Positions 44,777-48,414 of a DNA stretch of 64,000 nucleotides are shown piece by piece. The stretch is taken from positions 616,242 through 680,241 of the forward strand of contig CAZALK010000001.1 of NCBI GenBank assembly GCA_964486045.1, written 5' to 3'. Every line of letters begins with the position of its first letter. The stretch's first letter is position 1. The notes under the pieces are model-generated. The model made no database searches. It worked only from the letters and a program-made list of their open reading frames with translations, and had not been told where the DNA came from. The stretch is from an uncultured archaeon (GTDB lineage Archaea; Asgardarchaeota; Lokiarchaeia; Sigyniarchaeales; SOKP01). Both the position numbers and the translations under genes were made by a program.

Positions 44777-47700
44777 CTAATCCTTAGGTATTAAATCTGG
44801 ATATATCGGTTCGAATTTCGAAGTAAACACCTTCGGATTCATCCACCTCTTTTCTTGCTTATTCCACTCAAGGTTTTTCAATGGGTTATATGATTTTAGA
44901 AAATCTAAACCACCATAAATGGATTTAAGCAAATTAAACCCATCAACCAAGTCATTTAGTATTAAATAATCTTTAATTTCTAAATATTCAAATAATAGAT
45001 CAAACAATCTCTCAAACTCATGAAGCTCACACTTAGGAAAGTAGATTTTGATCATTAAACCATTAGGAAATTTGACTTCTTTATCAAATCCATAAATGTA
45101 ATATTCACCTTCTATCTCATAGATGAATGCGAGATTAAAAAAGCTAAAAATTTTAATAAGAGACTCTACTGTCTCTTGTTTTAAATTTGGGATAATAATG
45201 TAAACTTTATCATGAAGACCTAAATTTTTTAAAGATAAGTATGGGAATATCAGATTCTTTTTCAAAAGGCTTGTGATGTGATCTATAGTTTTCTTTTTTT
45301 TGGCACCTAAATACGACTTGATATCTATTGAATGCCAATTAAATATTTGAGACAACGATTGGAATTCAGGAGAATCAGGGCCAAAGTGTGAAGAAATAGG
45401 GCGTTCAGTTATAATAAACTCTTTTACTCCAGTTATCTGAAAATTATATTCAGAATTGAAAAGTATATTTTGCATATGCGCTTTAAACCTATTTGTATTG
45501 TATTGCCAACCCTCTGGGCTAAGATTATAATCAAAATGGAGAATTTGATAAATTTTCTTAACATAAAATACGCAATATTCTCGGATTATCCTCTTTGATT
45601 TCGTTAACCACTTCAAATATTTAACATTTGGAGCACCATGAGGAAATATAAATTTTATGAATATAGAGTTAGATTTATCTATACACGCAGGATACTTAAT
45701 TTTCTGGAAATTATTCATTAGAAGGAGTTTGAAATCGACTTCATTCATATCTGTTGGATAAAAATATAAAAAATGTTGATTAAGGCCAAAATGCTGAAAG
45801 GCAGGAATGAATTTTATAGATTTAATGTAGTTTATAAAGAAGTTTTGCTGTTTATTTTCTTTAAATTTTTTAGTATCCAGTATATATTCATCAAGATTTA
45901 AGTGTAAATGTAACAATTTATCTAAGTCTATTTTAATAAATTTGATTTGTTCCCTTTGGAAACGATCATTAATCTTTTCGATTACATTAGAAATTTTTTT
46001 TTCCTTCGACCAAAATTTATTATGAGACATTAAATTTTCTTGAATTGGTGGTAAGATGCCCCCCAAAAGTTTCTGTATAAAAAGATAATATTGATCAAGA
46101 AGGTCTTTTGAATAAAAGAATTGATTGGCTTGCAAATCATAAAAATTTTTAATGGAAAAAGCCGGAATAAATCCACTCCATTTATATGATTTTGCAAATA
46201 AGATCTGATTTTTAAGATTATTGTATATAATTGAATAAAACTGCCCTTTTTCTTCTATTGTAATGTTAGGAGTACGTAGATCCACCCAAATAAATCTTTC
46301 GTTTAAAATTTCATCCTTGAAATGACAAACACCTGTTAAGGGAAAGTATTTTTTTAACTTATTTATGAATTTTTTAGTCTCCCCTGAATCAGCTACTATT
46401 AAATGAAGAGAATCTTTCATATATTTACCGATAGTAACCGTATTAAGCAAGAATGGTTTAATTAAAGGTGGTTCATGATTTAAAAAGTCGTTAAGAATTC
46501 TATCAATTTTTAAATTTGTTAATTTATAAAGCTTCCACTTCTCATAGGACTGATTTAACTTTTCTTCTTTAGTTTTATAAATAGTGTCTACTAAATTTTG
46601 AGTGACAAGTATTTTCTTGATGATTTGTAGATTAAAAATTTTCAAGTTATAAAATGAATTAAATAAATCATAAAAATATTGGAATTTTTCTACATTTTTT
46701 TTGTATTCATTTCTTGAATTAAAGTAGATCGATATTATCTCATCTAAAATAGTGGACATTACTTTAGCATTATTTAATACAATGTTTTTTTCGATTGAAT
46801 TTACAGAATATTTATTCTTTATCACTTTTTTAAGATGGTTTGAATTTTTAATCTCAAAATTACTTTCTAATATCTCATCTATAAAACCTATTAACGGTAT
46901 AAGCTCATCTAAGTAATTTTTAATATAAAAAAAACCAAAACGTTCATTAGATTCTATAAAATGCAGAGTCTTTGTTTTTATTTCAACCGAATTATAGAAA
47001 ATATTTAATGTTCGTTTTAAATTTTTAATTATAGTGCGTTCCCTAATAACTTCATTCAATAGATCTGATTTTAATTTTTGTAATGTATCCGTTCTCCTTT
47101 CAAAACCAAATCCAGTAACACTAAAAATCGAATTCTATCGAGAAGTAAAAAATCTAAAAGATTAAGTTCAGTTTCATAAAACATTGCACCATATTTTATT
47201 TTAAATTCGGTTTCATATCTATTATCATAAGATTGATGAGTTGGATTTATAATACAATGCTTTTGTGAATATTGCCTTAAATAATTCAAATTCAATGCGA
47301 TTGTTTCAGAATCCCGAATAAAATATCGATATTCAATTATATAACCGGAATTCTTCAATTTCCCTATAAATTCATAAAGGTCTTTTAAATAAGCTTTCGG
47401 TAAAATAAAATAACAAAAAATATCTAAGCAAAATGTGCTTCTTGAAACTTGGGGTGCTAAAAAAAACGGCAATGTACTTATTATCCTAAATATTTTAGAT
47501 TTATCTAATAATGGATTAAACCGGAAATAAACGAGAATTACACATACATTTATATTATTCCAATTAATGTGGTAAGAGGGGGCTAAAAAACTTTCATTCT
47601 TAACCCATTCCATATTTTTAACGAATTTTCTGAGACTTAATTCTGTTTGTAATTGATTATTTTTTTTAAACTCTTGGAAATATCCTTTATAACTTTTTAA

Positions 47701-48414
47701 ATCCCTATATCTCTTTACTTTATAAAAAATCTTTATCAAACATCTAATAGTTTCTATGATCTCATCATTATTCATCGATTTTGAAAGATAAGTTTCAAAT
47801 TCATCAAAAAAAATAGTATGGATATCTTTGCCTATATCTTCTATTTTGTTGCTAAGTTCAGAATAGTTTCCTCTTATAAAATGAAAGAAAAACCTTGTTG
47901 GATTATGTTTTATTTTTTGGTATTTAAAAAAGCTCTCTAGACGGTCAAAAGCAGTCAATCGATTGAATCCTCCATATAAAAGATCGAGTTGCTCAAGATT
48001 TTCCCTAAAGATAGTTCTCCACTCATTTTTGTAAACAGAATTAGAAAGGTTAATCATTATTATTTGATTGATTACCATTTGCGCTACCTCAAAATCTTTT
48101 ATTTCAGAAGGAACAAATAAATTATAAATCTCTCTGAGCAGAATAAATGGCAAGAATTTTAGATATTGATCATAAATTTCAACCACTAACGTATTAGCTT
48201 GAGTATAACGATTAACCCCTCTACTAAAAACACCGTTTTCTTCTGACCCCTCATTTTTACTAATTTTAAATTTAATATTTATTTGGTAAGGGTCTAACCC
48301 TATAACAATAGAAAGATTTTTAAGAAGAGTTTGAATTATTAAATCGGAGTTTTTTTGAAAATCTTTTACTGAAAGATTTTCTATAGTACTGAAATCGATT
48401 AAATCAGGCATCAA
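44777..48414 (-). CDS. Single ~1212-aa multi-Lrp/AsnC-like putative regulator split by a 1-nt frameshift (track ORFs 47071..48414 and 44777..47059)
   Basis: Adding one base to the A5 run at 47123-47127 gives ...LLDRIRFFSVTGFGFERRTDTLQKLKSDLLNEVIRERT..., fusing both ORFs; paralog of 1..1239. Confidence 0.75.

Follow-up and report, generated by a model that had tools for sequence, protein, structure and literature searches.

A four-unit Lrp-like protein with a predicted zinc-free gluzincin domain, probably a gene regulator of novel design that senses a ligand or peptide in a Lokiarchaeial family

A stretch of 64,000 nucleotides from an archaeal genome (the window; G000:C1:616242-680241, in a genome of 5.18 Mb with 31% GC and 99% completeness) carries a giant gene that lies in two open reading frames (ORFs), ORF1 and ORF2, and the question raised by this locus is what the giant protein does. 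We conclude that it probably regulates genes by sensing a ligand or peptide and does so with a novel design, which in predicted structures joins four Lrp-like units to a peptidase-like N-terminal domain. The parts of the gene, and an intact copy at the edge of the window, are as follows.

ORF1: 47071..48414 (-), 447 aa; N-terminal domain and Lrp-like module 1
ORF2: 44777..47059 (-), 760 aa from TTG, frame open from 47134; helical insert, Lrp-like modules 2-4 and conserved C-terminal tail
Paralog B, N-terminal 413 residues: 1..1239 (-), intact ORF of 1220 aa, remainder past the window edge

An earlier note on this DNA, made from the letters and an ORF list, had read a single protein of ~1200 aa; this length holds for the intact paralogs and homologs (~1,200-1,225 aa), but here the protein is split between two ORFs that occupy different frames of the minus strand. 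The second paralog that the note had assumed is real and is paralog B, and the five peptide strings that it quoted are all found in the translations of ORF1 and ORF2 where it had placed them.

Four Lrp/AsnC-like modules in one chain

Lrp/AsnC proteins form dimers paired through their RAM domains (regulation of amino acid metabolism), bind DNA via two winged helix-turn-helix domains (wHTHs) and bind ligands at the RAM interfaces. We modelled residues 21-1220 of paralog B with AlphaFold, using 113 aligned homologs (predicted local distance difference test, pLDDT, 86.9; predicted template modelling score, pTM, 0.86), as well as residues 331-760 of ORF2 from the window (pLDDT 89.6, pTM 0.89). In the models, one order of elements is repeated four times: three helices, a short wing strand and beta-alpha-beta-beta-alpha-beta. 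Projected on the window, the predicted modules and the segments around them are as follows.

Lrp/AsnC-like module 1: 47275..47772 (-), ORF1 residues ~215-380; three-helix wHTH, wing and beta-alpha-beta-beta-alpha-beta RAM-like domain
Helical insert between modules 1 and 2: 46616..47122 (-), all-helical, ~165 residues; no match in the fold search
Lrp/AsnC-like module 2: 46076..46612 (-), ORF2 residues ~150-328; pairs with module 1 as in NirDL
Lrp/AsnC-like module 3: 45530..45934 (-), ORF2 residues ~376-510
Lrp/AsnC-like module 4: 44876..45388 (-), ORF2 residues ~558-728; pairs with module 3
C-terminal tail: 44780..44875 (-), strongly conserved, YNPLKNL.WN...PIYPDL

The RAM-like domains pair in the models into an alpha+beta barrel, as in the Lrp dimer, and the chain terminates in a highly conserved tail of 55 residues. 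With Foldseek, the best match in the PDB was the siroheme decarboxylase NirDL for both models (E 7.4e-4 for paralog B and 4.4e-7 for the ORF2 half), and modules 1 and 4 also aligned to whole Lrp regulators (129-147 of ~150 residues). As modelled, the four Lrp-like units of the giant chain form two 'dimers' within the molecule, each resembling the fused NirD-NirL chain. Matches to AcrB/RND pumps were set aside as repeated ferredoxin-like subdomains (TM scores 0.07).

The earlier note's count of about four wHTH+RAM modules thus agrees with the models. Three of the four strings that it took for HTH-to-RAM junctions are the wing-to-first-strand junctions of modules 1, 3 and 4; the fourth, LNLLDFLLLDRI, is the helix after module 1, and the junction of module 2 was missed.

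Sequence searches gave a different picture. For the window ORFs and the three intact paralogs, Pfam and NCBIfam gave no match at E values up to 0.1-1, including the HTH_AsnC-type/HTH_24 and AsnC_trans_reg (RAM) profiles, and a profile search of PDB sequences had no match, Lrp included. Homology searches retrieved members of the giant family alone. Profile-profile comparison of segments (hhalign windows) revealed no internal repeat (best probability 13%). Hence, the repetition of the modules is visible solely in the predicted structure.

Each module has the element order of the Lrp/AsnC proteins (FFRP; E. coli Lrp/AsnC, B. subtilis LrpC, Pyrococcus FL11 and the halophilic Lrp 8q90), that is, wHTH, wing, linker and RAM-like domain, and the RAM pairing of the giant protein mimics the Lrp dimer. 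Whereas those regulators are built from ~150-residue subunits in non-covalent dimers to octamers, the giant protein has four diverged units in one chain, and it differs further by the 165-residue helical insert, the extra N-terminal domain and the missing Pfam matches given above. Because of this analogy, we read the giant protein as an asymmetric single-chain tetramer that would bind DNA and respond to ligands.

The best fold match raises another explanation, in which the giant protein would not bind DNA and would instead reuse paired Lrp-like alpha+beta barrels, in the manner of NirDL and AhbA/AhbB, as an enzyme or as a scaffold for small molecules or cofactors, with its HTHs as structural relics. 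NirDL is by far the best match of both halves; like AhbA/AhbB, it consists of two fused or paired Lrp-like units (PDB 4ch7/4czc), and a B12-binding radical S-adenosylmethionine (SAM) gene lies beside the giant gene in 3 of 15 loci. Although NirDL is part of the AsnC lineage, it works as a siroheme decarboxylase, with its substrate bound within the barrel (PMC4835899). However, NirDL comprises two units in ~310 residues and lacks a peptidase-like domain, it serves as an enzyme in heme d1/alternative heme synthesis, its sequence is 9-10% identical to that of the giant protein, and heme-pathway genes were not among the neighbours at the loci (the genome was not searched for the pathway). Its top rank comes partly from being the sole fused pair among the matches listed. 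Across the giant family no His or Cys is invariant, NirDL/AhbAB having a substrate-binding His in the barrel (a comparison made at the level of sequence conservation), and the family behaves as a fast-diverging, lineage-specific regulator. Because of the last three points, we rate this main rival below a regulator and consider it quite unlikely.

The N-terminal domain is predicted to be a gluzincin without zinc ligands

The remaining domain of the giant protein precedes module 1.

Gluzincin-like N-terminal domain without zinc ligands: 47773..48414 (-), ORF1 residues ~1-214; LLREIY helix in the position of HExxH and INQ in that of the third ligand

A fold search independent of Foldseek, run against 48,161 representative chains, listed 50 matches; among these, every match centred on model residues 1-197 was the catalytic domain of a clan-MA metallopeptidase or a known inactive relative (TAF2), and the alignments covered 157-176 of ~200 residues. 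The degenerate zincin-like domain proposed in the earlier note is therefore what the models suggest as well.

By the aligned chain ranges, the conserved LLRE.Y helix falls at the HExxH of thermolysin and of LTA4 hydrolase, at what we take to be the residue numbers of the motif in both. Its conservation shows that the motif did not arise by chance. Among 75 aligned sequences, Arg is found at position 96 in 74, Glu at 97 in all 75 and Tyr at 99 in 71, whereas position 100 is variable, so both His of the motif are missing, as had been noticed from the sequence. The third-ligand position is Gln (Q119 in 67 of 75) and follows N118. M1 enzymes of the same archaeal family have the invariant ligands H72, E73, H76 and E95, and the distance from Glu to the third ligand is 22 residues both in them and in the giant family. 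No aligned member has HExxH at positions 96-100, and the sole HExxH string (in P0043) occurs in another part of the domain; His is present at 96, or His-Glu at 118-119, in a few members. The domain is thus modelled as a gluzincin (thermolysin/M1-type) fold that has other residues in place of all three zinc ligands and keeps the Glu at the catalytic position alone.

Compared with active and inactive gluzincins (M1: F3, LTA4 hydrolase; M4: thermolysin, LasB; inactive TAF2), the domain resembles their thermolysin-like catalytic-domain fold. It differs in its zinc ligands (His to Arg, His to variable, Glu to Gln), in its fusion to DNA-binding-type modules, and in sequence, with no similarity detected by hhalign between its profile and the M1 catalytic domains of the same archaeal family (probability 0.5%) and no match to a Pfam peptidase family. 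A GAMEN-type motif was not noticed, no search aimed at it having been made. A profile of the N-terminal 230 residues found 173 proteins among 1.84 billion cluster representatives; the best 150 of the 173 were all members of the giant family or their fragments, with the domain always N-terminal, and included neither an active-peptidase relative nor another architecture. As for M1 peptidases themselves, Peptidase_M1 (PF01433) was present at E <=1e-10 in 16 of the 31 genomes searched and had no match in the window's genome, which was one of them.

Another explanation is a domain unrelated to zincins, with a common arrangement of alpha/beta elements plus helices and a coincidental spacing of RE and NQ. 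This is unlikely given that a clan-MA peptidase or TAF2 accounts for every listed match centred there, that the spacing to the third-ligand position is exact, and that His at 96 or His-Glu at 118-119 occurs in a few members. An independent search with language-model features of the window's domain points the same way, its named clusters being solely clan-MA (M9, MA_2 and M1; 0.86-0.89), although such features give leads and not proof.

The window copy is interrupted at a run of five T

We searched the genome with ORF1 and ORF2 by tblastn and found three further copies, each a single uninterrupted ORF of 1219-1224 aa that is collinear with ORF1 and then ORF2. Besides paralog B, which is 47-56% identical to the broken copy, these are paralogs C and D, both located elsewhere in the genome. 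Homology to the paralogs is continuous over the junction, passing from ...LDRIRF in the frame of ORF1 to FSVTGFGFERR in the frame of ORF2, where intact homologs have R-(F/Y/M/W)-(F/L/Y)-S-V-T-G; the final 17 residues of ORF1 are out-of-frame read-through past the frameshift.

Frameshift site: 47123..47127 (-), T5 run, cgaTTTTT followed by agt; 1 base fewer than in intact homologs by codon-level comparison

Read from this comparison, ORF1 and ORF2 are a single gene interrupted by the loss of one base at the T5 run.

The ability of the window copy to work in the organism hinges on the nature of the frameshift, either a true mutation or a mistake of the assembly. For an error in homopolymer length, which would leave the gene intact in the organism, we see nearly even odds: only one base is missing, it is missing at a T5 run, both halves retain long open frames and 47-56% identity to the paralogs with no further defect, and the partner transporter gene and micro-ORF (below) are undamaged. 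Against it, a gene for a haloacid dehalogenase (HAD)-like hydrolase near paralog D (L026:13705-14412 (-), on G000:C5) is a second disrupted gene of the genome and is split by an in-frame stop, FR*YYG, where homologs have Glu (FREYYG). This stop arose by substitution, which is impossible as a homopolymer error. Hence, real pseudogenes or base errors occur in the assembly.

Two other ways of reading through the junction were discarded. An alternative genetic code or stop read-through is ruled out, as ORF1 and ORF2 are in different frames. Programmed -1 frameshifting is unlikely since the site, A TTT TTA, is non-canonical relative to the X XXY YYZ heptamer, since nearly all homologs examined are unbroken and since the two other interrupted matches have stop codons elsewhere.

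The giant protein is specific to one Lokiarchaeial family

More than 220 homologs, nearly all of 1,190-1,230 residues, were found in a search of 5.8 billion proteins, and all of them are annotated 'hypothetical' and are without a Pfam domain. Those with a named source come from Promethearchaeota/Lokiarchaeota, with a few labelled Thor- or Hermodarchaeota. Among 201 surveyed genomes of the phylum, 36 of the 40 that belong to the same Lokiarchaeial family as the window had the giant protein and none of 160 others did; matches mostly numbered 1-3 per genome, and the ORFs were almost always intact. The giant protein is specific to this one family.

When we looked for proteins made up of just two modules related to the C-terminal half, only fragments of the giant family were returned, and PADLOC had no match for the family. 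The intact protein is soluble, having no transmembrane segment, and is basic, with an overall isoelectric point (pI) of 9.2 and HTH segments of pI 8.4-9.8.

A transporter gene and glycine-rich micro-peptide ORFs accompany the giant gene

We mapped the ORFs of 15 loci from 12 genomes and clustered them by BLAST. The sole recurrent neighbour was a major facilitator superfamily (MFS) transporter, which in 9 of 15 loci lay at most 2 genes away from the giant gene, in 3 different synteny groups (checked with Pfam); other neighbours were tRNA-modification genes and others. In the window, the transporter gene and a short ORF lie on the divergent strand.

MFS transporter gene: 49327..50565 (+), divergent from the giant gene; the single member of its family in the genome, no paralog
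Nine-codon ORF MFHGDGVGP: 49000..49029 (+), divergent strand; candidate micro-peptide gene, 29 nt downstream of TATA-like TTTAAAAGTATA

When the spacers upstream of the giant gene were scanned for short ORFs with glycine-rich tails, 7 were found on the divergent strand and 0 on the other, against 0.33 predicted from their frequency in 111 other spacers; because of kinship among the loci, this figure overstates independence. In the window, the spacer spans 48415-49326, and TTTAAAAGTATA is an exact 12-nt repeat in it at 48971-48982 and 49084-49095 (+), with its copies 113 nt apart. The second copy lacks an ATG at the corresponding distance and may be what is left of a second peptide cassette that has decayed.

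Head-to-head with paralog B are three paralogous peptide ORFs of 37-41 aa (1380-1505, 1667-1789 and 1967-2080, all (+)), each starting with a K/R-rich stretch, continuing into a hydrophobic ..LTAIS.. core and closing with a Gly-rich tail whose last residues are GGP or GTP. A genome-wide regular-expression search found peptides of this type at paralog B alone, and paralogs C and D had no glycine-tailed short ORF under the filter used.

Hence, the context of an MFS gene and glycine-rich micro-peptide ORFs is compatible with DNA binding and peptide sensing. The arrangement, in which a very short peptide gene faces the regulator-like gene head-to-head and a transporter stands alongside, recalls the RRNPP family and RopB with its leaderless SIP peptides (Bacillota). 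Those receptors are bacterial and have tetratricopeptide-repeat-type domains, whereas the giant protein has a zincin relic and Lrp units, and the likeness lies in the gene arrangement. Taken to its full extent, the arrangement would make the giant protein the intracellular receptor of a leaderless, glycine-rich micro-peptide of the MFHGDGVGP type that the MFS transporter carries across the membrane; in this receptor the zincin relic would be the pocket and the four-Lrp array would pass the signal to transcriptional control, as in a quorum-sensing-like circuit. We propose this complete circuit tentatively and think it rather unlikely.

Other features were seen around the giant gene. The B12-binding radical-SAM gene stands between the giant and MFS genes in its 3 of 15 loci (L017:6120-7733, L018:5554-7203 and L023:5724-7379), which are from related genomes, and the 900-bp spacer of the window has no remnant of it. 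Two overlapping ORFs of 743 and 764 aa with no Pfam family (window 52794-55025 and 55013-57307, (-)) are conserved as a pair in another genome, beside its ortholog of the giant gene (L017, clusters c38/c39); as candidates for the second paralog they were ruled out by having no similarity to the giant gene. Window positions 10001-12000 are 2 kb at 45% GC, compared with 24-34% GC in the rest of the window, and are probably a structural RNA gene.

Proposed function and significance

We consider it somewhat probable (roughly 55%) that the giant protein is a ligand-responsive DNA-binding regulator, a single-chain 'Lrp tetramer' with a zinc-free gluzincin relic, for which the micro-peptide is the most plausible ligand. 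The analysis established gene structure, family range, predicted folds, loss of zinc ligands and gene neighbourhood; DNA binding, the identity of the ligand and the regulatory targets are inferred. Each Lrp-like pair would present two winged helices to DNA, and the protein would bind at its own divergent promoter region. Binding of a small ligand would fall to the relic peptidase cleft, the RAM-RAM interfaces or both; the cleft, in which Arg-Glu-x-Tyr and Asn-Gln are invariant, is the obvious candidate for a short-peptide pocket. The glycine-rich micro-peptide encoded head-to-head with the giant gene would be the most plausible such ligand, and the neighbouring MFS transporter may move it. The earlier note's interpretation, a dead peptidase fold that senses peptides fused to a multi-Lrp DNA-binding array, is partly supported, in that the predicted structures contain the zincin-like fold without zinc ligands and the multi-Lrp chain.

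A protein that is large and basic (pI 9.2), has four wHTHs per chain and exists as multiple paralogs might instead be a lineage-specific architectural (nucleoid-associated) DNA-binding protein without a specific ligand, its N-terminal domain being an interaction or structural module; Lrp-family proteins can indeed serve as global or architectural factors. However, the conserved association of the giant gene with a single MFS family and with micro-peptide ORFs suggests local, specific regulation, and strict conservation of R-E-x-Y and N-Q where the active site used to be suggests that a binding site has been kept, so we regard an architectural role as improbable.

Lrp/AsnC regulators rank among the commonest transcription factors of archaea. 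To our knowledge, a covalently linked four-unit Lrp capped by a dead zinc-protease fold has not been described, and our literature search found no paper on such a protein. The component folds are already known; the combination and the covalent four-unit design are absent from Pfam, NCBIfam and the PDB. Because every database copy is a 'hypothetical protein' without a domain, the family merits a profile and a name. The broken copy in the window lowers its own value and not that of the family.

As modelled, the giant family is a clear case of a pseudo-peptidase domain recruited into a regulatory protein. If it is a regulator, an Asgard lineage converted a homo-oligomer into one asymmetric chain, with four DNA-reading heads and ligand sites free to diverge independently. 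If the peptide link is true, this would be a first candidate for a circuit that senses peptides in the archaeal kin of eukaryotes, and if the giant protein is the receptor of the micro-peptide, it would be an Asgard signalling circuit made from parts unlike those of any bacterial one.
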